Assembly: GCF_037042905.1 (NCBI RefSeq)
Contig: NC_087251.1
Coordinates: forward strand, 1,116,001-1,180,000
DNA length: 64,000 nt
Reading direction: 5' to 3'
Source of the DNA: Lytechinus pictus
Lineage: Eukaryota
The notes beneath the pieces are model-generated. The model was not told the origin of the DNA. It made no database searches and saw only the letters and a program-made list of their open reading frames with translations. This document shows positions 1-63,789 of this stretch, one piece after another; the stretch's first letter is position 1, and each line of letters opens with the position of its first letter. Made by a program: the position numbers and the translations under genes.

Positions 1-757
1 CAGCTTTTCCACAGGATGAAAAGGTTTGCCCTGTTCACTGCACTGAGCAGTATATAAACGCTACAAAAAATATAAGGAACTCTAAAAGACAACTCTTTAT
101 CTCATATCAGAGACCACACAAGAAGGCAACCTCACAAACGATTTCGAGGTGGATTAAGATGGTAATGACGTCAGCTGGTGTGAATACGGACCAGTACAAA
201 GCCCATTCTACGAGGGCAGCATCCACTTCTCTCGCCAGGAGAATGCATTTTTCCATGGACGACATTCTCAAACATGTAGGTTGGGCAAATGAAAAAACTT
301 TTCAGGCTTTTTATAACAAACCAGTGGAGGATTAAAATGGTTCCTACACGCAAGCAGTGTTACACCAAGGGAAATAAGTTCTGCAATTTGCAGGTTAGTT
401 AATTTCCTGGAAGCATGACGCATGTGACTACTGGGCTTTGAAATCTCGTGTATTCTCGTTCCGAGAATTATGAAATAAAATAGGAGGATTAAACGAGAAC
501 TTACCGTTTGAAGTTTGATCCTTATTTTATGAGTAATTGGAGGTTAGAGAATACGTGCCCTCCTCTCCCTCCCTTACTCAGGATCTTTTAGGTCTGTTCT
601 CGTAAGCCTCATTTTATTTTCGTTCTCACCAGTAGTCACAGTCGCTTTGAAGATTGAACGTAAGGGGCGGGCTATCATGTATTCTCTAACCTCCAATTAC
701 TCATAAAATAAGGATCAAACTTCAACCGGTAAATTCTCGTTTAATCCTCCTATTTTA
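1..757 (+). mobile_element. 3' end of a DIRS1-like retrotransposon (YR ORF end, internal complementary region, right terminal repeat) in NSL1 intron 5
   Basis: The YR ORF is followed by an 82-bp inverted repeat, 476-557 vs 676-757 (3 mismatches), ending in a T-run. This is the ICR/terminal-repeat layout of DIRS elements. Confidence 0.85.
3..335 (+). CDS. C-terminal part of a DIRS-type tyrosine recombinase (5' end outside window)
   Basis: Frame 3 reads AFPQDEKVCPVHCTEQY...LFISYQRPHKKATSQTISRWIK...SAGVNTDQYKAHSTRAASTS...ILKHVGWANEKTFQAFYNKPVED*. The HSTR and GW...TF..FY motifs are typical of DIRS tyrosine recombinases. Missed by the ORF track because there is no start codon in the window. Confidence 0.9.
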   Translation, partial: AFPQDEKVCPVHCTEQYINATKNIRNSKRQLFISYQRPHKKATSQTISRWIKMVMTSAGVNTDQYKAHSTRAASTSLARRMHFSMDDILKHVGWANEKTFQAFYNKPVED

Positions 758-1510
758 TGGTATGAGCCCTATTCCTTGTGATTTCTCAAATTGTTTTTCT
801 ATTAATATCAATCACAAGATAAGTGACGTTCAGGGCCTCATGACAACAAATTAGAGCTCCAACATAAGAATGATTTTTAAGACGAATTACAATGATCATA
901 TGGAATCAAGCATACAAGTCAACAGCATTATCAATAGCTTAAAGTTGCGTTACAAGCCTCTCGTCACCAGATTAATTGAAGTATGGAAGAACCTATTGCA
1001 AAGTGGTTTGGAAGTGTAGATAATAATGGCATTGATTACTGTTCGCTAGAAGATTTAGTCGATCAAAGGGAAAGTTGTTCACATGTGACATCACACATCC
1101 TTGTCGCATTGCCAATGGAGGGTCTCTATAGCATTATTGATTGCAATATTCAAATGCTCATAACTTTCTCATTAATTATTTGTCCGATTTTTCTCAAACT
1201 TTCTTTGTTCTTATTCTTTGATTTTTCTGTTTTGACACAAGCCAACTTGTTCCAAAGGTTTCATTTTCCTTTAAGTCATTAAGGGTATTAAAATGAAATT
1301 TAAAATATTTATTAGAATTGGGGTCTGTTGTTGAGGGAATTTGGTTAATTAAAATCTCTTATGAATGGTTGAAAACCAAGATGTAATTGATTTTAGGAGT
1401 AGTGTTTAATTGCACACATTCTGCTATTTCTGCAATGCCTCCCTGGTTGTACATGAAGTTGAAATGAAACCAAGATAGGATTTAACCCAAGAGGTAATCA
1501 TCTATCTCAC

Positions 1511-4500
1511 CCGTGATATAGCAGATATGTCACATCCTGCTTCCTGAAGTCGCTTGGATTCCTCATCAAGAACTGTGTGAACAAAAAATCAGCACAAATT
1601 AGTTAACATAATCAAATATTGTACGCATATAATTTTTCAAATAATCCATGAGGGAGAAATATCTATATTATATATGGATAACTTATCTACTGAAAAACCT
1701 GAAAACCAATAAACTCTTGAATGACACGCTTGAGATTTCAAGCTTATAATCCCACCAACATATTAAAAAATGCCATAACAAGAAATAATCATTTGATTAA
1801 GATATTGTTTTCAAGCACTGGTTTTCTCTATCTTACAAAATTTTCCCATAGTTATTACAATTTGAGACATTTAGATTTGTTTGTTTATCCTACAATACCA
1901 CTTTGAAATAACAAAATTATATTTCAAATAGAAATCTGAAAAGTATACTGAAATGGCTGTTACTGATCATTAAAAAGAGACTGATAATCATTTACCAATG
2001 AATGCATCTCTCAGAACAATATTCAATCATGAAGTACTTGAACAGAAATTGCTCTATCATGAATCAATATGTGCTTATCAATACTTTATTTTTAATTGAA
2101 TTGAATGAATTTCCAAATCTTACTGCCACATATGAATATTAATCTGTAATAATTGTAACATCATGTTTTTCCTTGTTTTCCTGTCAATTTTCAATACTGC
2201 TTCCTTTTTCCAAGAACTCAAATTATTTTTCTCTCTTCATATTGCAGTGTAACAATGTCGACTTTATAATGTGTTGTATAAAATGTGTTCTTTTGATTGT
2301 TTTTGGATATATGTATTGTGCAGGGCCCTGGTTGACAACAGTGTCTAAACCACTGAACAGGCTACCCTGGGTAAAGAAGACAAATAAAATAAAATAAATC
2401 ATATAATATTGGAGAATTACCTTGCTTAGGCAGCTCTTTATCTTTTATCTGTACTGGCTGTATCACTGGTTTGTATTTTTCCTGGAAAGATAAAGACTGG
2501 TTATTAATTGAATGAGCCAATGGATTCTAAATCATCAAAATCAGCTGTAAAAAAATGATGTGGAATGTTCACATACTGCTCTTTTTGGGACAAGACTTAA
2601 AAGGGGAGTTCACCTTGAAGAAAAGTTCTTTGTAAAAAAATCAGAAAAAATAAAAATATATTGACTGGCCTTGAGGGGAACATCAAATATGTTGCCTGCA
2701 ACAGAATCATATTGGCCCGAGTCTTTAGACGAGGGCAATATGCTTCTTTTAAGGGCAACATATTTTATGTTTCCCGAAAGAAGAGCCAGTCAATATTATA
2801 ATAATAATAGCTGGATTTATAAAGTGCCTTTTGCCTGAGGATACAAAGCGCTGATATTATTACCCCGGCTTTAGCTCGAGCTACCATCACCATATCACCA
2901 TATCATTATTACGAAAGGCTGTACAATGGGTGATTTAAAGTTCAGTGTTGACCTATTGATGTTGGTGTTAGGTCAAGTTTCACATTAGTATAACACCAAA
3001 CATAAAATGAAGATGGTCTCGAAAAGTCACCCACTAGTTTTTGAGATGTCAATAATGTGATCTGGATCAGTTTTACAAACTTAGAATAGATTTTGGAGCT
3101 GGGGGAAGCAATCCAAATTCCAACAGAAACACCAATGCCAACAGCAGACTTGATATTCACCCTATGTGTATTTCAAACTATCATTTGAAACAATTTATAT
3201 GCCTGTTTGCTTATCACTCCTTCTGATTTCAGGTTATTCACAAACTTAGCAAAGTAATCCTTGCTAAGCAATTGTGACGTAAATTGTTACCTTGCAGTCG
3301 CGCATCATGCATGGCGTAAATCTCGGGCCTGGTTTTGTGTATGCACTGGCCGCGCCGTGCATTATCTACAATGCGTTGGTTCATAAACTGGTTCCAGCTA
3401 GATTTCCCAAATACTGAAAGTAGCGATCAAAATCGGCTCCTACACTAGCAGAAATATGGCCAATATTGCCCTTTATTTTTGTACAGGATTCCTATGGGCA
3501 AAGCCCGGCGAGGGCAACATGGCAAATGTTTACCTCGTTGTGGTCTCGGATTGAAAGTAGCGAGTGAAATATATTTATTCATCTGCTAAAATGCCTTGTA
3601 TAGGTAATAATATTGTTGAAGGCTTGAGGAAAATCCATTAAGAATAAGAAAGTCATTAGAATTTAAATTTTGGAATTGTGACATCATTATACAAGAAGCT
3701 GTATCATGTACCCTGTATGCAATATAAAAATGCATATATTTCATTTCTTTATGGTTTGTGATGACTTGTTTTAGTTTTCTTTTTAGGAATGGGTGTAAAA
3801 TGATTTGTCTATTGATATACTTAAAGTACAGTAAAAACCATTTTCAATTTTCTGAGAAAACGACATTTCATTGATTTTTTCCACATGATAAGTAGGAAAG
3901 CTGCTTGCATATGATGTCACAAATCAAATAATTCAAATTCTAATAACTTTTTATTTTTCTCAAAACTTTGGGAATATTTTTTTATTTTTTCTACTATTTT
4001 TACTATAAAGTTTTTGACAGGGTGAACTTGCCCTTTAAATAATAAAAAAAATAAAAAAAATGGAGATGTGGGATAAAACATTAGTTAGGGGTGACATTAT
4101 AATGACTCTTTCCCTTGCACCCTCAGTGAGTTGGATTGGAGGAATAGACCTGTGTTTAACTTTAATAGCAATTCAAGGCAGGCTCCAAGTCTGAGACATA
4201 TACTGTGATATACAATATTTGTAGGTCTACCAATGGTCCAAAATCTGATGTCCAGATTAACAAGACCATGGTATAACTCTGTACTCAAATTATGGAATGC
4301 CAAAAATGTCAACATTTTGTTCACATAAATTTCTTATTTTTTACTGCCTTATATTCTTTCCTCATATTTCAATTGTGATTTGTGAAGATAAGTATTTCAG
4401 TTATGATTCCCAGACAATAATGAATGAAGTAAGTACCAAATGTACTGATGAATTTCACCTAATGTTAATTTCACCACTCCTGTTAGAAATTAGTGCCACA

Positions 4501-7500
4501 ATTTGCTATCCATAGTTAAACCATTATTTTAACAAATAAAACTAAATCAGATTTCAGAATACGGGCCAATGTCACCTTTTACATTTATTACTATTTTATT
4601 TGGCAGATATCCAACCTACAATATAAAACAAATCAACGATATTAAACAATCACTTCAATTACAAGGACAAAAATAACTGATGCAATAACGCAAATTTCTT
4701 TAGACACTGGATGCACCTGGATGAGCTGCCTGGCATTAGGCAATGTTAACCAAATAACAGTAGTCCATAGACTGCCCTAACCCTACACCACCAAGGTGAA
4801 TCCAGTGTCATATCTTTATGTGACATGCATATATCACATGCAACTATCATAGCATAAACTTGCATGTAAAAATACATATATGAACAAAATATATGTTAAA
4901 ACTTGCTCAGAATCTATAAGCATAAAGCCATTTACATTCAATACTGCATCTTAATGTGACATATTCATTGAAGCTTCAATGTCGACATCATTCAGCCCTC
5001 ATAGGGAAATTGTTTATTGGACAATAATTTAATCTTTCCCCATTTTACATCAGAGGGCTTCTACTGTGAAAGGCACACAAGACCACAAGGTTGCGCTTGA
5101 CCATGTATGTGTATGTTACTCTTTAACCCTCTAATCTTGATCAATCTGATATCTGTTTATCATACTTGAGTAAAGAATTCTCACCATTAAATGACCCCAA
5201 AACACCCCTAAAGCTTCTCCTTACCACAGCATATCTTAAATGCTTCATACGCTTAGTGACCTCATGAGAAACCTTGGCAGGGTGTGTCCTTCTCTTAGCT
5301 GTTGTCTTCACCATTAATTCATCTAACTCAAGGGTTCTTGTTGAAACTTCTTTCTTTAGTTCCAAATCTACTGCTTCGTAATCTGCAAGAATGAAGATTT
5401 GGAACATTAGTGCTGCACAGTTTAGATCATTGCCAGCTGTAAAAACCACAAACATTGTCAAGTAATGTTGATACACTACATTTTCAGCTAAGGCTAAAAA
5501 CAGAATGGAGATGGGGGGAAGGTTGTGGATGACATTTTTATGACCCCAGTGAGTTTTTTTGTACCTTTAGCTTAGGCAGATCAATTGTCTGACAGACAGA
5601 AACACATTCAAATGTCTATTGTTCACAATGTGATATATTGGCTGTTCATTGTCATATCGTGCAGCCATACTTACCTGTATCCCAGGGGTGCTCATATAAC
5701 ATTAAAACAATTCCAGTCTTTTGAGAGATGAAGGGAAAATAAAGGCATTTTGGGTAGCAGAAGCAGTATTGTCAACTTAACTGCATTAGACATTGTGTAA
5801 ATGAATTTGGAGAAAATCTTATTTTTATGAAACCTGCAGCATTTTCACAAAAATGTATTATATAAAAGGAACTGTGGGCATCTTTTGTTATCTGATTAAT
5901 ACAGACTTCAGTTTTTTCTCAGGTGAATAGGTAGTTCCACTTTGTCCAACTTTTCTTCTTGTTCTCATCACACATGGTCTAATCCTTGTTTGCCAATAAC
6001 CAGTTTGTCTACTAACCATTTAGTCTAATTGCAATTCAGCCCATTCACCATTTTGCCTAGTTTCTAGTTAGGCTATACCTATTCCAACTACTGTAATATC
6101 CACTTGGTCTAGCATTCAGTCTTTATGATTAAAAATTGTTTTTTTAAACAAATTTTCATTTGTCAAAGTGCAAAATAGTACTTATACATAGTGGAAATTA
6201 GACCATATGGGCATTAGCCATTAGACTGACAGTTAGACCAAATAATAATGGTTGGACCACAAATAATCAGACCAAATTGATAGTAGACCAAATAAGTTTG
6301 GCCTCAAAGAAAGAATTTAATATCAGGATACTGTACACCCCTTTTGAACTGCACTATTTAGTCACAGATCAGGGTTGCCAACTGGCCTTTTTTCCGGCCA
6401 GATTCCCGAAATCTGGCCGTAAAAAAAGTAGCTTGGCCGTGAAAAAAAAAAATTTCACGGCCAAAGAAATTTGGCCGTATTCTGGCCGTAAAACAGAAAT
6501 CTTGGCCGTGAGTTTTCATTTCTGGCCTTTTTCATAATCAGATAGAAAAATTGATCAGAAAATCACTTTAAATAGGTCTATGTCATAGAGATGTAGCGTT
6601 ATTAGTATACATCTCTATGGTCTATATATACAAATGCAGTCAGGTTTACGCACGCATGTGCCACGGCGTGTACTTTGCATGGATTAGCCCTGATCTAGCT
6701 AACGCTACGGTACGGCGCGGCATAGATATACCATGAAGCTATTAATAGCTTCATGGATATACAGCATGCATTCTCAAAACGCGCGATTAGTTGCGTAACG
6801 TGTGGGGGAGGGGATTCTTATATTTATTTGTCAACCAGTCACCATCATCATATTTTCGCCATCATATATATTATATTATTAACGTTTGTTTTCTTTAAAA
6901 AAAAAGTAATTGAATAAAGTAAAATTCAAATATTTAGTTCTTTTTCCTTTCTTTTTTCTTTTTCTTTTCTACGTATTTTTTTCTCTCTTCTTTTTTTTTA
7001 TAGGATATCTACTAGGATTTAAAATCGAGTAGGTGTGTCTCACAATTTAAAATCAGGGCTTTTACTAAAAATATGTGATAAAAATATGCCTACTAGTATG
7101 CAAGTAGGATGGAGATCGATGACAGAGAAAGAAATGAGGAAAATCACAGCTCCAACAGGGGCGGATCCAGCTTATCTGAAGGCTGTACATGTTTGGTTAG
7201 TCATGACCATATAAAGATGTAATTGCAAAATAAACAGTGTTTGGCTATATAATGTGATCAAAAGTAATCAAAAGCAGCCCAACCTTTACATATTACGTTT
7301 TCTATTTTTTTCTGTTTTCTTCTTTCTCAATACTTCCTCAACTATAATTTTCTCTCTCTCTCTCTTTTTGTCGTGAGTTTGAAAATCCCCCATGAAGCTT
7401 GGCATATGATTATTGGCAAAACAAAACAAAACAAAAAAGCTCAATCTTTTAAATGCTCCTCGAATATAGCTGATATGAACTAGATCGAAATGCATGGTGC

Positions 7501-31300: not shown

Positions 31301-34295
31301 ACCTGGAGAGTTATTGTTTTTATACGATTTTAGTTAGTAGGGTCCATGGTGAGATAAAAAAATGGAGTTCAATAATGAAGCATGTGATCACAGGAATGAT
31401 TGATGATTTATATGACCCAATAGACCATAATTATACCAGTAGGTTTTTGTCTCACCTGCGAAGCAGAGTGAGACTATAGGCGTAGCTTTTCCGACGGCGG
31501 CGTCAACACCAAATCTTAACCGAAGGTTAAGTTTTTGAAATGACAGTATAACTTAGAAAGTATATGGACCTAGTTCATGAAACTTGGCCATAAGGTTAAT
31601 CAAGTATTACTGAACATCCTGCCTAAGTTTCAGGTCACATGACCAAGGTCAAAGGTCATTTAGGGTCAATGAACTTAGACCATGTTGGGGGAATCAACAT
31701 CAAAATCTTAACCTAAGGTTAAGTTTTTGAAATGCCATCATAACTTAGAAAGTATATGGACCTAGTTCATGAAACTTGGACATAAGGTTAATCAAGTATT
31801 ACTGAACATCCTGATTGAGTTTCACGTCACATGACCAAGGTCAAAGGTCATTTAGGGTCAATGAACTTTGGCCAAATTGGGGGTATGTGTTGAATTACCA
31901 TCATAACTTTGAAAGTTTATGGATCGGATTCATGAAACTTGGACATAATAGTAATCAAGTATCACTGAACATCCTGTGCGCATTTCAGGTCACATGACCA
32001 ACGTCAAAGGTCAATGAACTTTTGCCATAATGGGGTATCTGTTGAATTACCATCATAACTTCGAAAGTTTATGGATCTGATTGATGAAACTTGGCCATAA
32101 GAGTAATCAAGTATCTTTGAAAATCCGTCCGAGTTCAGGTCACATGACCAAGGTCAAAGGTCATTTAAGGTCAATGAACTTTGGCCATGTTGGGAGTATT
32201 TGTTGAATTACCATCATATCCGTGTAAGTGTATTGGTCTAGTTCATAAAACGTGGACATAAGAGTAACCAAGTATCACTGAACATCTTTTGCGAGTTTCA
32301 GTTCACATGACCAAGGTCAAAGGTCAATGGACTTTGGCCATGTTGGGGGTATCTGTGGCATTACCATCATAACTCTGTAAGTTTATTGGTTTAGTTCATA
32401 AAACATGGACAAAAGAGTCTTCAAGTATCACTGAATATCTCATGCGAGTTTCAGATCACATGACGAAAGTCAAAGGTCATTTAAAGTCATTAAACTTTGG
32501 CCATTTTAGAGGTAATTATTAGATAACTTTCAAAGTCTATAGATATAGTGTATAAAATGTGAATATAGGGGTAATCAAGTATCACAAGTTTTAGGTCACA
32601 TGATCAAGGTCAAATATCAATGAACGTAGTATTGTATCATTATATGAATGGTGTTTTTTGTGAATGATTATTTCATAGTAGTTTTCAAAGTCAGCACTGC
32701 TGCTATATTGAAACGCGTGATGCAGGTGAGATCGCCAGAGGCATTCCACTTGTTATTTGTGTATTATTGTTGTTTGGTCTTACTATTTTGGTATAATTTT
32801 TAACTTCAGAACTGGTTAAAACACTTGCAGATCCAGGGGGGCAAAGCCGGCCCATGACTCCCCCCCCCCCCCCCCCCCCCCCTTTGAGAGGCGCAATTAA
32901 AATTTGTAATGTAAAAATGCCGTGAAACAGAAGTGTGATCCCCCTTTTGGAAGTGAATACCTTTTTTTTTTGCTTGTCAAAAGATTTCCTCGGGAAAATG
33001 TGCCACCCCCCCCTTTGGAAAATCCTAGATCCGCCTCTGGGTTGAAATATTTAGTTTTACTATTTGCTTCCTCTCTTTCCAATTATATCTCCCTCTCCCT
33101 CCCCCCCCCCCTCTTGCTCTCTCAATTGTTCACTGTCTTTCCTTACCCCCCGCCCCCATTTCACTTACTCTCTCAAACACGCATGGACAAGAAGCAAAAG
33201 CTAGTTAAACAGCTCCCTCTTGAGAAGATTCTATTGGAGACAGATTCCCCAGCATTGTCTGCAGAAAAACAAGTAAGTCTCTTTTTCAGTCAAAGTATCA
33301 AGTATTCCATTAAAATACAAATTTTGATGAACCCTCTGAAACAATATTTTACAGTTTTTCAGCGAGCTAGGTGCTTGACCAAAGCAAAACTCAGATAATT
33401 TGTTTCTTTACCGTCTGGATGCGGCTTTTCCAACAGCGGCTGTGGCATAGTCAACATTAAAATCTTAATCGAGATTAAGTTTTGAAATATCATCATATGG
33501 ACCTATTTCATCAACTTGGACATATGGGTTCTCAAGTTTACTGATCAACTTGCATGAGTTTCAGGTCATATGATTAAGGTCAAAGGTCTTTAGTGTCAAT
33601 AAACTTTGACTATGTTGGGGTATCAACATTGAAATCATAGCCAGGATTGTGATTTAAAATTTTTAAAGATAATTTTGCAAATATTAGTCCCTACTCCATA
33701 ATACTTTTGTTTAATGGTTATCATTTATTAGCAAATAGACGAATGTAATTTCAGATTTCTGGGAAAACGTCAAAGGTCATTTGAGGTCAACAAACTTAGG
33801 ATTTTATTGCCAAATGGATGTTTAGGGGTTCCTTCGTTTCTTTTATGGAAAAAATGATTCATCTAAGTTGTTATCAAAGTCAGCACTGCTGCTTCATTTA
33901 ATTGCATAATGTTGGTAAGACTGCCAGAGTCATTCCACTGTCTAAAATATCAGTTATGTTTTGCTCTGATGGGGTTTGAACCTTCGACTTCATTATTTAT
34001 ATTCTACTGATATATCCACTTATCCCCACCATTTCTATGAAGCCCATTTCTTTTGTGAATATTTTGGGTTTTTTTTTATGAAGTAGTATACAGGAAGCGA
34101 TCATGAATATTAATTCTTGATTTTAATTCTTGTTCTTATTTCACTCAGAAACGGAATGAACCCAGTAACATTCATATATCATGTGACTACATCGCGGAGG
34201 TCAAAGGTGTGTCAGTGGAGACAGTTCGGCAAATCACCAGAGAAAATGCCCTTAGACTTTTCCCCAAAATTCAGAAGTTTCTAAAAACAAGATGA
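19368..34295 (+). CDS. TATDN3: TatD-family deoxyribonuclease TATDN3, complete, 9 exons, 275 aa
   Basis: Exons: 19368-19433 ([22 protein letters not shown]), 21245-21277, 26562-26681 (...[10 protein letters not shown]), 28689-28790 (...LVAVGE), 29414-29523 (VGLDFTPR...), 30124-30179 ([12 protein letters not shown]), 30962-31074 ([11 protein letters not shown]...[12 protein letters not shown]), 33192-33272 ([18 protein letters not shown]), 34149-34295 (RNEPSNI...[17 protein letters not shown]). All introns are GT-AG and phases join. TatD metal-ligand motifs DxHxH, GE.GLD, H(SR), H(AF) and ETD are intact. Confidence 0.96.
19822..20540 (+). mobile_element. 5'-truncated CR1-clade LINE (RT C-terminus, 3' UTR, (GAT)n tail) in TATDN3 intron 1
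   Basis: ORF 19889-20416 reads [17 protein letters not shown]...[23 protein letters not shown]...[11 protein letters not shown]...TRGH..KL...WNSLP, followed by a GAT microsatellite tail to 20540. Confidence 0.88.
22680..23038 (-). mobile_element. tRNA-derived SINE
   Basis: Minus-strand A box TGGTGTAGTGG and B box GTTCGATTCC; core-like CTCGACCCAGGTGCAAAATGGGTACC; AT-rich tail. Confidence 0.75.
23744..24723 (+). mobile_element. HINE/DINE-1/Tsp-like element, copy B
   Basis: TTTTT GTCTCACCTGCA..GTGAGAC, long (GGC)n, ~120-bp tandem cores, TGCAGGTGAGAC...CATTCCACTTGTT. Confidence 0.85.
27366..27843. mobile_element. PIF/Harbinger-like MITE
   Basis: TIR AGGTGGTTTCAGACCGC / GCGGTTTGAAACCACCT; 3-bp TSD ATG (27363-27365, 27844-27846). 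Confidence 0.8.
31446..32754 (+). mobile_element. HINE/DINE-1/Tsp-like element, copy C
   Basis: Same termini as copy B, short (GGC)n, more tandem cores. Confidence 0.85.
32822..33039. mobile_element. Short hAT-type MITE (CA..GGCGGATCC family)
   Basis: Termini CACTTGCAGATCCAGG / CCTAGATCCGCCTCTG; flanks GGTTAAAA vs GGTTGAAA (7/8). A near-copy lies at about 35246-35452. Confidence 0.6.
33420..33940 (+). mobile_element. Degenerate HINE copy D
   Basis: Decayed GCGGCTTTTCC start, AAGGTCAAAGGTC cores and CAGCACTGCTGCT...CCAGAGTCATTCCACT end. Confidence 0.6.
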
Positions 34296-42230: not shown

Positions 42231-42631
42231 TTGGAACCATAGTAAATAAAGTTCACTGTCAAACCATATTCACAAAAACATTGTTTTGTCTTGTCAATCT
42301 GAGACACTATTTAGAAGAGATGTATTGTCTATCAACCTAAAACTGATTTTACATACGTATTATTCTCCCCATGCAACCAGCCAACTCAGACACCTCATCC
42401 CTCTTTCTCCTCTCTCGTTCTTTCTCTTTCTTTTCTCACCCAGGGCCCTGGGAACGATTTTTTCAGTGGGGGTGCTGAAATCTCTCCTCAAAGGTGGGGG
42501 GGGGGGGGGCACAATTGAGTTTTCCATTGTTCTTTTACACACACACACACGCACATTCACATATATATATATATATATATAATGAGATGAGGCGAGGCCA
42601 ACTCAACAGATGACGCAGGACACCATTATTT

Positions 42632-42671
42632 GCTTTAGCTTTCGTCTTTTAATTGAGACTTCGTCAGAAGC
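42632..42671 (-). ncRNA. Minimal type I hammerhead ribozyme motif (Penelope-like)
   Basis: Minus strand GCUU-CUGACGA-A-GUCU(caauuaaa)AGAC-GAAA-GC-UA-AAGC: helix I, catalytic core, helix II and palindromic AGCU helix III. Confidence 0.6.
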
Positions 42672-42776
42672 GTCTGAAAAACGTCTGAAAAAAATCTGTT
42701 GAGTTGGCCTCGCCTCATCTCATTATGTTTAATATTCACAACTCAACAGCGATTGGTAGAAGTAAACTTATCATCA

Positions 42777-42827
<51 letters not shown>

Positions 42828-42847
42828 TTGGATTGCTTAACTAAGCT

Positions 42848-42885
42848 AGTCGTAGACTGTTTCACCCTAAGGCTCATCAGCGACT
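42848..42885 (-). ncRNA. Second minimal hammerhead ribozyme-like motif
   Basis: Minus strand AGUCG-CUGAUGA-GCC(uuag)GGU-GAAA-CAGUC-UA-CGACU. Confidence 0.55.
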
Positions 42886-42946
42886 CAGCTCTTTCACAGT
42901 CGAGCACTATATTAGATATTTCAGTATATCACAACTTACTTACTTA

Positions 42947-42991
<45 letters not shown>

Positions 42992-43977
42992 CAGTGTGTA
43001 TCAAAAAAAAGTTTACACTTAGTAAAAATCCTGTAAAATTATACACTTGTAATATCCTGAAGATTTTTCCACATTTTAACATTGGTACAGGTCCATTTAA
43101 GCAAATGACGATATAAAGTTACTGGAAAAATATTTCCGCTTGAGTGAGCACCACTTACTTTTGAAAAGTTAGGGGAAAATGATTTGCGCAGAACTTTGAA
43201 ATAGTTATGCGAATAAAAATAGACCTTAATTATGAAGAACACGTGGAATTTAGCTAGTAAAAATTATTTGAAGATATCCTTTACCTTTTTTAACTTGTTT
43301 CCTTGCCCAAAACACTTCGAAGAGTGACTCTTGCGCCACCCACTCCCCCACACACCGAGGCCATCGTGACGATATTTGCTTTACACTGAGCTGTGATTTA
43401 CATGACTGCATGGCTTAGGCTTGATTTTCATTTTGTTAATCATTGTCAAGCTTGGGAAAAGTGTGGATAAACAAGTATTTAATGAAAAATTAAATATAAA
43501 CCCTCTTTAAATGGTAAAAATTTAGTGAAAAAATGCTGGAGATGTCTGAAATAAACTTTTGTTCAGATTCAGTTATGTCCTCAGATCCAGCTGGCACTAA
43601 AAGGGTAAAGGTTGTGCTTACTAAGTGTTGAAATTTCAATTTGGGTGGCAAAATTGTTACAAAATGCTTGAAGGTATCCGTTTTATTTCAATTGACTAAA
43701 AGTGCAAGGGAAATATATGAGAAATGTTTCGCAGGGTAAGTTTGATTTCTCCCTTTCCCCTTGACACAGCGTGAAAACGAGCATATCTGCGCAAACAGAT
43801 TTCTGCGAGCTTTACAAAAATGGACAGTGCTCACGCAAGTGTAACATTCTGTCATAATTTTTACTTTCATTGGATAGATGAGACCCAAACCCAAGAATAT
43901 GTGAAAAATTACCCACATGTATATCTTTTAATTCCCAGGGCTTTTTCAAAGTGTAAACTTTTTTTTGATACGCACTG
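42992..43977. mobile_element. Tc1/mariner-type MITE inserted in a (TA)n microsatellite
   Basis: TA|CAGTGTGTATCAAAAAAAAGTTTACACTT ... AAGTGTAAACTTTTTTTTGATACGCACTG|TA; same TIR tip as 12942-15265. Confidence 0.88.
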
Positions 43978-44249
43978 TATATATATATATATATATATAT
44001 AATTCGAGCGCGAAGCGCGAGTTAATTTTTTTAGGAAATTTCATGTATTTTGTTCTGAAAATAATTGAACATTTTGAGCAATGTTTGTGGTCCTGAACAA
44101 GATGCGTATATAACAAATAATAACATGCGAGCGAGATCAGCGCGAGCAGATATCTTTAATATACGCTCTGGCCTGATCGAAAGGGATCTGTTATAATGAC
44201 TGTTTGCAGTTACCCATTATGAAACTCCATCTGAACAAATTTTTAAAAT

Positions 44250-53130: not shown

Positions 53131-53203
53131 GCCCGGTTAGCTCAGTCGGTAGAGCATGGGACTCTTAATCCCAGGGTCGTGGGTTCGAGCCCCACATTGG
53201 GCG
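53131..53203 (+). tRNA. tRNA-Lys(CUU)
   Basis: GCCCGGTTAGCTCAGTCGGTAGAGCATGGGACTCTTAATCCCAGGGTCGTGGGTTCGAGCCCCACATTGGGCG, 73 nt, full cloverleaf, anticodon CTT, Pol III terminator TTTTT at 53208-53212. Confidence 0.95.
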
Positions 53204-53534
53204 CACATTTTTAAAATTTTAAGCAGCGCATGTACTTACTAGTATGGTATTTAAAATCATTAAGACATCATGCATCAAAATGGCACTCTTTAGGTCTGTA
53301 TATAGGACCTATCGTGTTCAAGGTGACCATATTTGGACAGTTTGTGATCTGATCAGTTTCACTTAAAGCCAAACATTTTCAGAGGGCACAGAAAAAAAAA
53401 CAAGCAAGCAAACGAAGCGAGCGATAAAAGAATTGTGATAGATTTTGACATACCGTAAAAAAAAAAATACGATAAAATACGATATCATAAATCACCCTTT
53501 CCTATTTTGCTACTCTGCATAAAATTGTTAAAGG

Positions 53535-56500
53535 ATGCTCAGATCGTTGAAAAAATGTAGCGAAGAATCTTTCAATCTTAAACTGTCTGCCGTTGATTGG
53601 TCAGATTTAACCCAATGCACTGACGTAAATAAGGCTTGGTCAGTTTTTCAAAATACTTTTATTTCAACGTTGAATATGATAGCGCCTCAAAAACGGATTA
53701 GAATTAAACAGAGATCAGAAAACTGGATTACTAAAGATATTATTTCTCTTATTCGAGAAAGAAATGTGGCGTATAAAAAAACGAAGAAAAATCTAAGCGA
53801 TCAGGATTATGACACGCTTTCCAAAAGATACAAGAAATTAAGAAATATGGTTCAAAGAGAGGTGAAAAAGGCCAAATTAGAATACCTACAAAATAAAATA
53901 GAAGAAAATAAAAATGATTCTAAAAGACTTTGGCAGAATCTAAAAAGTTTGGGATTAAAAAAGAAAAATGGAAAGGACCAAGAATTAGTCGTTTCAATTG
54001 ACGGAGAATTATGTCATGATAAGATTACTATTTCCAATGAATTCAATTCCTATTTTACAAATGTCGCAGCTACGTTGGTAGATAAACTTCCATCTTGCAA
54101 AGACATTTTCAGTGCAGACAGTGAAAACATTCGTGAATTTTATGAAAAAAAAAGGTATAAGGCAAGATAAATTTGAATTATTACCTGTTAGTGATCAATT
54201 CATTTTTAATGAGTTGCGTAAATTAAATGTATCAAAAAGCACTGGGTTAGATTTGATACCTGCTAAATTTCTAAAAGAAGGAGCAAAGAGTTTGTACAAA
54301 CCATTAAATTTCTTGATAAATCTATCTATCTTTACCAGCTCTTTCCCAGAGGATATGAAAATTGCAAAAGTAACTCCTATTCATAAGAAGAAAGATAAAA
54401 CTGCTGTTGAAAACTATAGACCTATCAGTGTTTTAAGCATAGTATCCAAAATTCTAGAAAAGGCGGTATGTGTTCAGATCGAAAAATATTTTAAAGAAAA
54501 TGATATGATTTACGAATATCAGTCAGGTTTTCGACATGACTATTTGACTGAGACATGCCTTATTCACTTGACTGATTATCTGAGAACAAATATTTCTAAG
54601 GGACAATTCGTTGGGATGGTACTCCTAGATCTTCAAAAAGCATTTGATACAGTTAATCACGGCATCTTATTGAAAAAATTACAAATAATGGGTTTTAACA
54701 AGGCTACTGTAGCATGGTTCAAATCCTACTTGTCGAATCGACATCAAGTAGTGGCTATTCGCGATATTTGTTCCAAAATTATGCCTATAACGTGTGGAGT
54801 TCCACAGGGAAGTATTTTAGGCCCAATCCTATTTTCAACTTATATCAATGACATGTCTATTTGTATAAAAGCTGACTGTAAATTATTATTGTATGCAGAT
54901 GATAGCGTACTACTTTGTTCAAATGCCAACCCAAAATTTGTTGAGGAAAAACTTAGCGAACAGCTGTCTACATGTGTCGATTGGATGACTGATAATAGAT
55001 TATCGTTACACTTAGGCAAAACCGAAAGCATTCTGTTTTGTTCTAAAAGTAATCATAAAACTTCATTTGAATTTGAAGTATCATACAATAATAAGATAAT
55101 TCAGAGGAAAGAATCTGTAAAGTATTTAGGCATTGAGTTGACTAGCTCCCTTTCATTTTCATCTTTAGTAGAATCAATCGTAAAAAAGGCGAATGCCCGT
55201 TTGAAATTTTTGTACAGGTATCAAAGTTGTATGGATCAAAAAGCAAGGCGTATTCTCTGTTTTGCTCTTATTCAGAGTTTATTTGACTATGCCAACCCTG
55301 CTTGGTTTAGTGGCATAAGCGAACTCGATAAAAAGAAGTTGAAAATTATACAGAATAAAATGGTTAGATTCATTAGCTGTTCTGGTCCCAGACCCCATGT
55401 TGGCTACACCGAACTCTCTGGAGCAGGTTTTCTTGAAGTCAACAAAAGATCAAAACAGTTAAAGACCCTGACCGGTGTAAAAACAATCATATATCAAAAT
55501 AAAGGTAATGATTCATACAATACGAATATACCAAAAATATTACATATATCTCCTTCCAATAGTTAACAATATCAAATAAAAATCAAAGAAACTGCTCCTC
55601 CAAAGTACGCTTCGATTGAGCACCCCCACGTCGCCTGGAAATGATGACGTCACGTTGTGTCAGGAGGGTTGTGATTCCATAGGTTTGTATACAAAAGCAT
55701 TGGGTATTTTCTTCCATTTCCATGTTATGAATCCATTTTTTTTTTCCGTTTTCAGATGAAAATGGCACTCAAAATTATTCACTGTTCAAATTGTTGTAAA
55801 CCTACAACTATTCACTACCTTTTTTGTGATTTCTTTGTTTGGCTCTTATTGGGCCTAAATTGCTTTGTCAGGAAAAGTTGTTATACATAATCTAAATGCA
55901 GATAGAATTGAAATCTGCGCCAAATAAGCAGGAAATAAAATATGGCAAAAACTAGTTCAAAACTGCAGATTTCATAAATTCAAGCTTGTGGGTAAAAATA
56001 TATGTGATATCCCTCTGTGATAGAAGTGAAGAGAATGAAATGCGTTATCTGGAAAGCCAAAAAATCACCCAGTTTTTCTGTGTACAAACCTATGGAATCA
56101 CGACGCTTCTTACACAACGTGACGTCACGGTCTCGAGGCAGGTGAAAAGCACAATAAAGCCTATTTTCTAAGCGGGGTTCGAAACCCGATAATTGGAATA
56201 TTCTTAAGCAAAATACTCAGCTGGGAAGCGGTGAAAATGCATAAAGCATACCTTGGTGTATTTAGTAGCTTATAAGCTTTCGATTGGTATATAATTTATC
56301 AATTTCATTTTCGGGTCCGGTCTGGATCTTTAATTTTGCACCACGTGCATAAAATCTATCATAATAGATCGAATCATTACATTGGATCAAACTTTAATCT
56401 AGTTACCGAAATACATAACTATATAATACAAGAAACAGCCATTTCAATTTTTGCTTACCAGAAAGGATAGGTAGTATTGGTAACTCATTTTATTACAATG

Positions 56501-59884: not shown

Positions 59885-62713
59885 GCAATGGTTGCTATTT
59901 GCCTACGGAGATTTACTGAAATGATTAAAAAGAACAGGATAACCCACAGAACAAGACAAAACGAAAAAAGAATAAAATAAAGCGAGAAAAAAAACACAAA
60001 AAAAACAGGATGACAAAAGGAGTAATAAACATAAATAGAACCAGGACGAATTGCGACCGAAAGAGAGGATAGAACAAAATGATAAAGACTAACAAAAATA
60101 ACTTGAAGTCTGAGAGGAGATGATAACGAGCAGGAATTAGTAATGAAAACCTCGGTAGGATTTAAGTAAGAAGTTTTTTAGTTTTCTTTTAAAAGAATGT
60201 ATGGAAGGGCTGTTTTTTATGTTATTGTCGAGGGAGTTCCAAAATCTAGGGCCATCGAACATGAATGTACTCTTTGCCAATAAAGTTCTAAAACGGGGTA
60301 AATGAAATTCGTTAGATTGCCTATAGTCATGATAGTAGGGTAATTATGAAAAGACCGATTAAGAGGAAACATAGAATCAAATACACGTGGAAGTGTGTTT
60401 TTGTCAAATTCAAACATAAATTGTCCTAAATGAAATAAGTATAGGTCGCTTATCTTCAGCAATTTGCTATCAAAAAATAGTGGGTCAGTGTGTGAACGAA
60501 AAGCTGAATTATGAATAACACAAAGGGACTTCTTTTGCAGTAATAACAGTCTATCTAAAGTGGTTTGGTGGGTGCTCCCCCAGGCAAGTATCCCATAATT
60601 CAAGTAAGGTAAGACTAAGATCAGGGAAGAATATAGCATTAAAAGTGATGACGACGAAAAATGATATTTCAGTTTATTGATAATGCCAATATTTCGCGAA
60701 ATAATCTTACATATACAATCTATATGGTATTTCCAGGAAAGCTTATTATCAACGGTAACACCGAGAAATTTAATAGATGTGACACTTTCTAAATTAGTGT
60801 CATCTAAAACAATGTCCATGGGAAGTGTATCAATAGAATTGCTTAATAGCATATATTTAGTTTTAAGTAGATTAAGAGACAATTTGTTGGATCTTATCCA
60901 TTGTGTGACTTTTAAAGTTCATTATTAACAGTATTTACTAAGGTATATGGATTTTTATGGGAATAAAATATATTAGAATCGTCTGCAAAAAGAATGAACG
61001 AAAGGACATCAGATGATCTACAAAAGTCATTGATATAAATGATAAATAATAAAGGGCCTAACAAACTGCCTTGCGGGACTCCACAATTAATGTATTGCAT
61101 GTTGGATGCACGACCATTCAAAGATACAAATTGACGTCTGTCAGACAAGTAGCTTCTGAACCACTCCAAGGCCTTCCCGCGCACCCCATAATGATAAAGT
61201 TTATGTAATAAGATATCATGGTTAATGGTGTCGAAGGCCTTGGAGAAGTCCAGAAAAATGCCGACTAGATGTGAGCAATTATCAAAAGCGTGGGCCACTC
61301 TATCAACGAAATTCAACAATGCATGTTCTGTGTTATGTTTTTCTCTAAATCCAAACTGAAAGTTAGAAAAAATATTGTGAGATTTAAAAAAATCAATTGT
61401 TTTGCTATAAACCACTTTTTCTAAAATTTTGGACAAGGATGATAATAAAGAAATTGGGCGATAGTTACTGATACTTAACTTGTCACCCTTTTTGTACAAC
61501 GGAATGACCTTGGCAATTTTCATGCGATCAAGGATCGACAATTTCAGATATTATACCTTTTAAAATAAAGTTATTGACATCATCGTAACCAGGACTTTTT
61601 TTATTATTCAAATTAGATACAATATCAGTAATATCTTTTTTTGACTACGGGAGTGAAAAATATTGAACTAGAATTAGGTGTACCTAAATAATCATGAAAA
61701 TGTTTTGTTGAAGGGGGGATGTCTCTAGCTAGGTTAGTTCCTATAGATGAAAAATAATCATTAAAAATATTAGCTATATTTTCAGGATCTCCAATAATAT
61801 CACCGTTAGACCTAATTTCAGTTATATCGGACTTATTACTGGATAAATTCATGGCTTGTTTAAGAACTTTCCATGTATTTTGAATGTCGTGCTTATACAG
61901 AATTATTTGATCAGTGAAATATCTTTTCTTTGCCAAACGTAAGGTATGAGTTAAAGTATTCTTATATGTGGTGTATTTAGTTTTTGCCTGAAGAGTACCT
62001 TTAAATTTTGAATTATAATATAAATTATTTTTTCTGTTGATTGAACGCAAAAGTGCTTTAGATATCCAAGGAAGTCTTGGTGATTTTTTGTTGTTAGTTT
62101 GTCTATCTCTTACTTTTGGAATATGCTTATCTAATTCACTAATAAAAATATTCAGAATGTTATTGAAGCATATGTTTGCATCATTATTGTTATAAATAGG
62201 TGACCAGTCAACAGACTCTAACGAAACACCCAGTCTTGCAAGATTCTCTGGAGTAGGTCTCCGCCTTGATGGCTTGGATGGATTAATACATGAGTGCTTA
62301 AGGGTAAAATGTGACATAATGGGAAAGTGATCTGTCAAATCAGATAATATTATTTCAGAATCAGGAGTCGGCATGATGTTACAAAATATGTTATCAATAA
62401 GTGTTGCAGAACGATCTGCAACGTGAGTGGGTTTTGATATTAATGGCAAATATGAAGAAGTCAAAAATGTTTCAAGAAATTCATGGGCAGTATTGTTGCT
62501 GTCATGCTTCAATATATCGATATTAAAATCCCCTAATATAAAAACATCTTTGTTCACCAACAATGGATATCTAACTAAGTTAGAAAGGTAAAGTAAAAAA
62601 TCATTATGGTTAGAATTTGGTGGTCTATATATAACACCTATAATTATATTTTTGGAATTTGGGACATTGATTTCGATAAAAAGTGACTCTACATATTCAT
62701 TCATAATAGTGAT
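59588..62713 (-). mobile_element. L2/Crack-like LINE with APE endonuclease and RT, degenerate
   Basis: ORF 61625-62704 (IGVIYRPPN, GDFN, LIDNIF, TDHFPI), ORF 60912-61541 (NYRPIS, DFSKAFDTI, GVPQGSLLGP, FADD) and ORF 60217-60882. Frameshifts and an internal deletion; (ATCTGA)n tail at about 59588-59611. Confidence 0.92.
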
Positions 62714-63789
62714 TGCGGCGATATTGTGTGACGCGGAGAGAACTCCTAGCCGTCGTCACATTGTCCATCATTTTCGTCATTATCTGCTGGGACACAAGTT
62801 TACCATCCGCACCGACCATTCGTCACTTAGGCGGATCATGTCTTTCCGAGAGCCGACGGATCAGATGGCCCGTTGGCTCGAGATCCTTGCCCAATTCAAT
62901 TTTGTCATGGAGCATCGATCAGGAAAGAGTCACGCCAATGCCTATGCACTGTCACGAATCCAGTGCAGCCCGGAATCATGCAGCTGTTATGACTTCGAAC
63001 CTATTTTGGATGCTTTGCCGTGTGGCGGCTGTACAGCTTGCAAGAGGAAGCACCTGGCATGGTCCAGCTTCATTGACTATGAAGATGTTGTGCCACTTAT
63101 AAAAATGCGACGAGTACAAGCAACAAAATCGACCTCAACTGACACTGAAGTCCAATTTCAAGAACCCGATGAAGAGAGTAAGATGTATTGTTCAGAACTA
63201 AGACTGATGATCTGGTATGTTTTAATGATTGTACATCTTGCTCTCTCTTTCTTTTCTAAGAATATACGATCCTTCTATCATTCAGTCAAATGTGTTTGTG
63301 TAAAAATGTGTAGCAGTACTAGTTGTCAATATGTTAGGCAAGTAACCACAAGAAGAAGGGCAAGAAATACTGCAAGCTCGAATGAATCGAACAAACCAAG
63401 TAATGGAAGACCAATTCTAGATAATTTAGGGGTGACTGCATCAAGCCTGTCAACAATTCAAAGGCAAGATAAAGATATTGGTGTTGTTTGGGTTTGGATG
63501 AAAGAATCAAATGTGAGACCTAATCGTGAAAAGATACAGGACAAGAGTCCAATAATCAGAAATCTGTGGTTATTGTGAGACCAGCTTGTATTAATTGATG
63601 ATGTATTATACAAGCGGTATGATGAAGGTCCATCCAAATCACACTTGACACTCGTCACACCTAAATCATTGATAAAGTTGATTTTGGAAAACAACCACGA
63701 TAATGTGATGTCAGGCCATTTGGGCATGAAGAAATCTTTGAGTCGAATCAGACATCACTATTACTGGTATAAGATGAAAGAACAAGTTT
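62713..63789 (+). mobile_element. Ty3/Gypsy pol fragment (RNase H C-terminus to integrase zinc-finger start), pseudogenised
   Basis: RRYCVTRRELLAVV / HFRHYLLGHKFTIRTDHSSL..MARWLEILAQFNF.MEHRSGKSHANA.ALSR ... HDNVMSGHLGMKKSLSRIRHHYYW; one frameshift and an in-frame stop at 63576-63578; no LTR seen. Confidence 0.9.

Follow-up and report, generated by a model that had tools for sequence, protein, structure and literature searches.

The window analysed (the whole 64-kb stretch of DNA) is AT-rich eukaryotic DNA, with a GC content of 0.29–0.42. It contains a 201-bp insertion (42579–42779) placed between two TA arrays: a (TA)10 tract at the left boundary (42562–42581), which constitutes the target site and overlaps the last bases of copy A (described below), and a (TA)22 tract at the right boundary (42780–42823). 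Any target-site duplication would be masked by these arrays on both flanks. The sequences 42580–42611 and 42694–42725 are exact reverse complements, as claimed in the original prediction, and extending them outwards by one base rendered a perfect inverted repeat of 33 rather than 32 bp (left arm, 42579–42611; right arm, 42694–42726). This is the longest of the seven perfect inverted repeats of at least 20 bp detected in the window when the arms were required to lie within 3 kb of each other and two-letter repeats were excluded. A 21-nt piece of the arm matched the window twice (with up to three mismatches), against 0.00 matches expected from 100 shuffles; no copies of the element were found within the 64-kb window beyond this locus.

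The insertion is best read as two 5′-truncated copies of the 3′-end of an element, placed head to head and separated by a 12-nt filler. Copy A (42579–42681, minus strand) carries a hammerhead motif and stops, without a tail, at the first of two 3′-ends, the left arm being its last 33 nt (minus strand). Copy B (42694–42779, plus strand) is shorter; it begins downstream of the hammerhead with the 33 nt of the right arm (plus strand) and continues through an optional tail of 53 nt (42727–42779, plus strand), found on this copy only, to the second 3′-end. The filler (42682–42693) duplicates 42671–42681, which points to slippage at the head-to-head joint. Since the tail is present only on copy B and the hammerhead only on copy A, neither can be a local copy of the other; the inverted repeat is there because the segment that forms it is common to both copies. 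The original prediction did not notice that two copies are present, and took the arms for inverted terminal pieces enclosing a ribozyme. An inverted terminal piece is indeed present, but the public contigs described below showed that the arms are not the termini of the element, but the part shared by two truncated copies. The proposal that the locus is a remnant of about 200 bp of a Penelope-type pLTR, lying in a TA microsatellite, was supported.

The hammerhead is a minimal type I motif located on the minus strand (42671–42632), recognised both by a descriptor search and by comparison with the consensus published for the minimal hammerheads of Penelope-like elements (PLEs; PMC4209133, Fig. 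S3). Helix I contains 4 bp (42671–42668 with 42635–42632) and is followed by the core CUGACGA (42667–42661), an extra A (42660), and a helix II of 4 bp (42659–42656 with 42647–42644) with an 8-nt loop, in which G42659 and C42644 form the G10.1–C11.1 pair. GAAA lies at 42643–42640, followed by G-C-U-A, the A at 42636 being H17. All the components of the catalytic core (CUGANGA, GAAA and UH, in type I order) and helices I and II are present. The tiny palindromic helix III that had been predicted corresponds to AGCU at 42640–42637 (15.2–16.2), which allows no stable monomeric helix III, and the predicted cut after CUA falls between 42636 and 42635, in agreement with the original prediction. A strict type I descriptor found this motif as its single match in the window, bearing out the presence of a minus-strand hammerhead between the arms, and matched only 2 of the 100 random 64-kb sequences generated as controls with an order-3 Markov model. 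A relaxed descriptor rendered three matches in the window (42880, 42667 and 10569), against a mean of 0.17. Rfam missed the motif both at the gathering score, at which no hammerhead was reported anywhere in the window, and at E values up to 10, at which the matches were otherwise limited to generic hairpins or microsatellites and to a Hammerhead_3 match at a second motif, described further below.

When the 43-nt core was folded alone, helices I and II formed with a pair probability of 0.99, with an unremarkable folding energy (z = −1.5; 19 of 200 shuffles were equally good). The probability of helix I depended strongly on context: it was 0.99 for the core alone, 0.06 within copy A and 0.02 within the full insertion. 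A competing hairpin is predicted at 42664–42677 (minus strand), in which UCAG at 42677–42674 pairs with the CUGA of the core. As for a two-strand arrangement, the double hammerhead was computed at −13.1 kcal/mol, compared to −6.6 kcal/mol for each monomer; the free minimum of the dimer (−18.0) was more stable than the double-hammerhead form.

Animal genomes contain thousands of minimal hammerheads derived from truncated PLEs (Cervera and de la Peña 2014, PMC4209133); most are single motifs, and two echinoid examples are described, one of them in a partial PLE. The motif in the window resembles the PLE type of that report in its core, in the extra nucleotide at 9/10.1 (after A9), in the G10.1–C11.1 pair and in the palindromic 15.2–16.2 without a loop 3; it is also like those of Fig. 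S3 of that report in having a short helix I, a U-rich 5′ flank and an AU-rich 3′ flank. All four of the features that can be seen in a single copy (the extra nucleotide, the G10.1–C11.1 pair, the palindrome and the flanks) are therefore present, and the motif fits the published PLE hammerhead feature for feature, its cleavage being a prediction. It differs from the two echinoid examples shown in PMC4209133 in belonging to another sequence family, and its 4-bp helix II is at the short end of the published range.

To place the locus within its family, public runs matching 42400–42779 were analysed; three consisted of contigs (X3, 394 records; X5, 259; X8, two) and one of 40 raw RNA reads (X24). 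The left arm and its microsatellite were masked as repeats, so that records of the arm pile up on the right arm, and the summed contig depths given here do not represent copy numbers. Summed depth was 30–60 on the unique flank and, in X3 and X5, reached 1405–5532 over the hammerhead, fell to ∼410 in the bin containing the junction (42673–42685), rose to 4494–5719 over the arm, and was 714–4994 over 42725–42776. This pattern marks a multi-copy family in which the junction is rare. A separate and very abundant repeat, unrelated to the hammerhead family, lies nearby at 42440–42527, with a summed depth of up to 25 900 in X3. One of the two X8 contigs (record 18, 281 nt) consists of 155 nt of other upstream sequence followed by 42681 to 42608 on the minus strand, a single arm and then (TA)n, with no tail and no differences over 103 nt. 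The hammerhead and one arm are thus colinear, and the end of the arm is a 3′-end. Similarly, 42694–42779 and 42694–42776 were each covered in a single piece (X3 record 8 and X5 record 15, respectively), showing that the arm and the next 53 nt are also colinear. The 3′ portion of the family therefore runs in the order upstream sequence, minimal hammerhead, 33-nt segment and optional 53-nt tail. At the start of the tail, X5 showed a threefold drop in depth (from 4529 to 1468) and X3 a slight one (from 5719 to 4994). The original prediction had also taken the perfect arms as a sign of a recent event. The contig that is identical over 103 nt agrees with this, but the arms bound the age loosely because they span only 33 bp; by the rule of three, zero differences in 33 bp permit a divergence of up to ∼9%.

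Four joints between pieces of the family were present among those listed, each in one X3 contig with a depth of 16–25; none was listed in X5, X8 or X24. Three of the four join antisense to sense, head to head, at breakpoints other than that of the locus under study (42630/42696, 42641/42695 and 42660/42725), and in two of these the intervening letters match the sense sequence of the family. Some of these three joints may represent alleles of the 42579–42779 locus that have suffered deletions. The fourth (42630/42735) has the same orientation in terms of the element and represents an internal deletion or a partial tandem. Upstream, three X3 contigs and one X8 contig continue past 42681 with other letters. 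The family has two such continuations, one behind 42681 and another behind 42676; the latter, together with 42672–42676, forms a perfect 16-nt palindrome that resembles the palindromes at the 5′-end of rotifer PLE pLTRs (PMC3846280).

Sequence changes among the contigs were listed with thresholds of 4% share and 80% likeness. Ten of the 16 changes found lie in the neighbouring repeat, three in loop II, one in the interval between hammerhead and arm, and two in the tail. All three changes inside the hammerhead are thus in loop II, and the core and helices showed no listed change across hundreds of contigs. No compensatory changes in helices I or II were seen, since the helices are invariant at the 4% threshold. 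The combination of invariant helices and a variable loop II is conservation, not covariation; the covariation in which the metazoan PLE families of PMC4209133 are described as rich was not seen at these thresholds. The RNA run X24, which bears another organism label and of which 6% was read, provided 40 reads, none of them at least 95% alike; their depth over the hammerhead was 1–4 per direction, with no pile of starts or ends.

These observations lead us to favour, with a probability of about 0.85, the view that the locus is a dead-on-arrival insertion left by PLE retrotransposition, consisting of two truncated 3′-ends placed head to head. Complex PLE insertions are known to have an inverted, 5′-truncated copy at the 5′-end and, at just one of their two ends, a tail of 30–40 bp; target duplications of PLEs are concealed when the target is (TA)n (Craig et al. 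2021, PMC8557442). The insertion resembles the complex insertions of that report and of Arkhipova et al. (2013, PMC3846280) in its head-to-head inverted truncated copy, its one-end tail and its (TA)n target, which is present on both flanks and also behind the copy of the family found in X8; the breakpoints, moreover, vary among copies. It differs from those of PMC8557442 in that its tail measures 53 nt rather than the published 30–40, and in the absence of any ORF. An open frame of 18 codons, short as it is, starts at an ATG at 42725 and runs to the end of copy B. The start of PLE ORFs can lie in the pLTR and tail (PMC3846280), a habit that this frame would fit.

A possible mechanism is offered by PAc, a Poseidon element of the green anole (Frangieh et al. 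2024, PMC11167929). The PAc protein cleaves AT-rich DNA on both strands, and reverse transcription begins at two internal sites in an AC-rich stem–loop, these two sites delimiting the tail. The locus is like PAc in having two 3′-ends that bracket the tail, a nearby AC-rich stem–loop, an AT-rich target and a pLTR hammerhead. In PAc the start sites and the protein-assisted cleavage of the hammerhead were measured (PMC11167929), while in the window they are deduced from structure only. The stem in question has 11 bp, formed on the plus strand by 42696–42706 and the AC-rich 42739–42749, and brackets the first 3′-end; the fold containing it in copy B had a z-score of −2.5, with 2 of 200 shuffles as stable, and one of its pairs is broken by a C>G change at 42747 in 15% of the X5 depth and 1.7% of the X3 depth. 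It can be regarded as a candidate signal for the start of reverse transcription. By analogy with the anole element, a PLE protein with reverse transcriptase (RT) and GIY-YIG domains would have nicked both strands of the TA tract (PMC11167929), and two cDNAs would have been primed on the element RNA from the nicked tract, the internal start site being the end of the arm (42579/42726) for one cDNA and the end of the tail (42779) for the other. Both cDNAs would have stopped early and then been joined at their truncated ends. The hammerhead would be the pLTR ribozyme of the family. In an intact element its cleavage would be expected to require either dimerisation through the AGCU palindrome or the help of protein (PMC4209133, PMC11167929); the PAc hammerhead needed protein and was dispensable for insertion (PMC11167929). 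The single-copy ribozyme at 42632–42671 is probably inert, since no equally oriented partner offers a matching helix III and since helix I is predicted hardly to form in read-through RNA of the whole insertion (probability 0.02).

The link between the hammerhead family and Penelope is architectural rather than direct, 30 upstream letters of the family being visible. None of the 71 frames scanned in the 38–48 kb region (out of 72 frames of at least 50 amino acids) had a Pfam match, and no GIY-YIG domain was found in 84 frames of the window, which comprised those 71 and 13 longer ones elsewhere. An ORF combining RT and GIY-YIG is absent from the locus, which is therefore not classed as an intact PLE. 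A literature search combining Penelope, sea urchin and hammerhead found nothing relevant. As for the clade, the Naiads are the PLEs for which a (TA)n bias is mentioned, and are described as lacking canonical hammerheads (PMC8557442); because of this, a Neptune or Penelope/Poseidon type is the likelier assignment for the element in the window.

Analogous arrangements were sought in JGI metagenomes. The exact family pattern gave no matches there. The one match of a relaxed pattern in viral contigs lacked helix II and was judged a chance occurrence. A looser metagenome pattern rendered at least 121 matches in at least 120 loci, with flanks available for 80. Helix II had at least 4 bp, beyond what the pattern demands, in 80 of the 121 matches listed; in another 34 it had 2 bp or fewer, and these were set aside as mostly chance matches in coding sequence. 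One short family with the same core accounted for 69 copies among the matches listed (L004–L120); these copies carry a minimal hammerhead and end at a constant 3′ position, and their 5′-ends vary. An inverted upstream copy was present at 5 of its 54 testable matches (four loci) among those listed; the tail was on the inverted copy only in three of these five, and on the sense copy in 1 of the 69. At L021, two copies lie head to head with a single tail, and the target appears to be duplicated over 11–13 bp. No PLE ORF was found for this family with one frame run against Pfam and a motif flag that also missed the RT of locus L013. Locus L013 has a core of the same type between a Penelope-type RT frame (RVT_1, E = 4.5 × 10–7), which ends 250 nt before the core, and a GIY-YIG frame (E = 8.9 × 10–7), which follows it. 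The order of features over 568–4957 of L013 is RT frame, TATA box, minimal hammerhead (at 4003), a long telomere-like hexamer repeat and GIY-YIG frame; this order is odd for a PLE and could reflect nesting or the assembly. Locus L062 carries the same hammerhead region as L013. Outside the core used for the search, the mined loci and the element in the window had no sequence in common (best BLAST E = 0.27), and they can therefore be used as an analogy only.

Alternative explanations were weighed against this reading. One is that the locus is the broken monomer of a non-LTR retrozyme; such units are non-coding, release themselves from tandem transcripts by self-cleavage, become circular and return to the genome by means of a PLE enzyme. 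Retrozymes contain canonical hammerheads in tandem repeats of 150–450 bp, minimal hammerheads being of the PLE type (Cervera and de la Peña 2020, PMC7229834), and their descent from PLE pLTRs has been proposed (Li, Clavereau and Pollet, preprint 10.64898/2026.07.22.740005). The element resembles them in being short, non-coding (no ORF was found), endowed with a type I hammerhead and PLE-related (PMC7229834; preprint 10.64898/2026.07.22.740005), and the same-orientation joint at 42630/42735 and the two different upstream sequences that follow the same hammerhead (loose ends 42676 and 42681) could be understood in the same way. Nevertheless, head-to-tail tandem units of 150–450 bp were not found at the locus, the hammerhead is minimal and not canonical (PMC7229834), and three of the four joints are head to head. 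The suggestion of a retrozyme-like mobile RNA made in the original prediction thus received no support, and we consider this origin quite improbable.

It could also be argued that the hammerhead is a chance look-alike in an unrelated repeat, and that a local fold-back duplication following insertion gave rise to the inverted repeat. The failure of Rfam to detect the motif, its folding z-score of only −1.5 and the lack of covariation would agree with the former idea, and the local slippage evident in the 12-nt filler with the latter. Yet the strict descriptor matched so few of the random sequences, features lying outside the descriptor core fit the PLE consensus (PMC4209133), and the core and helices are unchanged over hundreds of contigs in which loop II varies. 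A fold-back is countered by the distribution of tail and hammerhead, which shows that copy B is no local copy of copy A. This combined explanation is in our opinion very improbable. Least probable of all is that 42579–42726 constitutes a 148-bp MITE, with 33-bp terminal inverted repeats, a TA duplication and an interior that looks like a hammerhead by chance. The perfect arms do start and finish with TA, the usual target of Tc1/mariner elements, and a real element with terminal inverted repeats lies 260 bp away. The contigs, however, largely refute this idea: X8 record 18 has a single arm colinear with the hammerhead, the family sequence runs past the right arm into the tail and, with other letters, past 42681, and the inversion breakpoints vary among copies.

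The same TA tract contains further insertions. A second, weaker hammerhead-like motif (42825–42948, minus strand, core at 42880) lies between the (TA)22 tract and a (TA)18 tract, 213 nt from the first, and is not mentioned in the original prediction. It has a 5-bp helix I extended past a bulge and a G10.1–U11.1 pair, lacks the extra nucleotide and is not palindromic in helix III; it corresponds to the Rfam Hammerhead_3 match mentioned above (15.5 bits, E = 3.7); it probably represents another PLE-type family. Beyond it, at 42986–43983, there is a non-coding element of ∼1 kb that has CAGTG at its ends, is flanked on each side by TA and carries terminal inverted repeats of 48 nt (90%); it looks like a Tc1/mariner-type MITE. 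Together with the two hammerhead insertions, this makes the TA tract a stack of three insertions. Elsewhere in the window, one tRNA gene (53131–53203; Rfam, 67.8 bits), frameshifted LINE remnants (RVT_1, endonuclease) together with an LTR-type RT_RNaseH fragment (53532–55566 and 60217–63578), and two exon-like pieces with Pfam matches to Mis14 (5141–5566, minus strand; E = 8 × 10–6) and, weakly, to TatD DNase (32910–33398, plus strand; E = 5 × 10–4) were observed.

The competing hairpin suggests one further idea, which we advance as unlikely: that the hammerhead of the family is gated by the 5′-end of the RNA, so that UCAG would mask the core CUGA in RNA that is unspliced or arises by read-through, and splicing or transcription initiation at that point would unmask it and switch on cleavage. 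The UCAG at 42677–42674 (minus strand) also resembles an AG acceptor or an initiator site. The mean pair probability of the hairpin was 0.49 in a 53-nt context, 0.28 in copy A and 0.73 in the whole insertion, and when the RNA was made to start at 42673 the folding probability of helix I in copy A increased from 0.06 to 0.72. Among the metagenome matches listed, 73 of the 87 that have a helix II of at least 3 bp contain TCAG no more than 14 nt upstream of the core, against 4 of the 34 with a shorter helix II; as 69 of these matches are one family, the count amounts to about four independent families. As an acceptor or initiator consensus, TCAG would be expected there anyway. Arguing against gating, L013, L092 and L098 would leave a loop of 2 nt, which is too short. 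No spliced reads supporting gating were seen among the 40 reads of X24, which carries another organism label. A literature search on this point listed no paper on such gating of a hammerhead. An intron of D. virilis that ends at helix I has already been noted (PMC4209133).

As it stands, an ordinary truncated pLTR pair of the PLE type carries little weight, and a new element of knowledge would come only from the idea of 5′-end gating. If true and general, gating would account for the apparently sluggish behaviour of PLE hammerheads in vitro and would connect control of the ribozyme with the intron or promoter of these elements. The locus nonetheless shows the insertion signature of PLEs in compact form, with its two 3′-ends, a tail at one end and a head-to-head joint with filler, and it cautions that loci of this kind look like MITEs that have perfect terminal inverted repeats. 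A breakpoint map of the whole family could test, in a second animal, the model in which PLE reverse transcription begins at two start sites.
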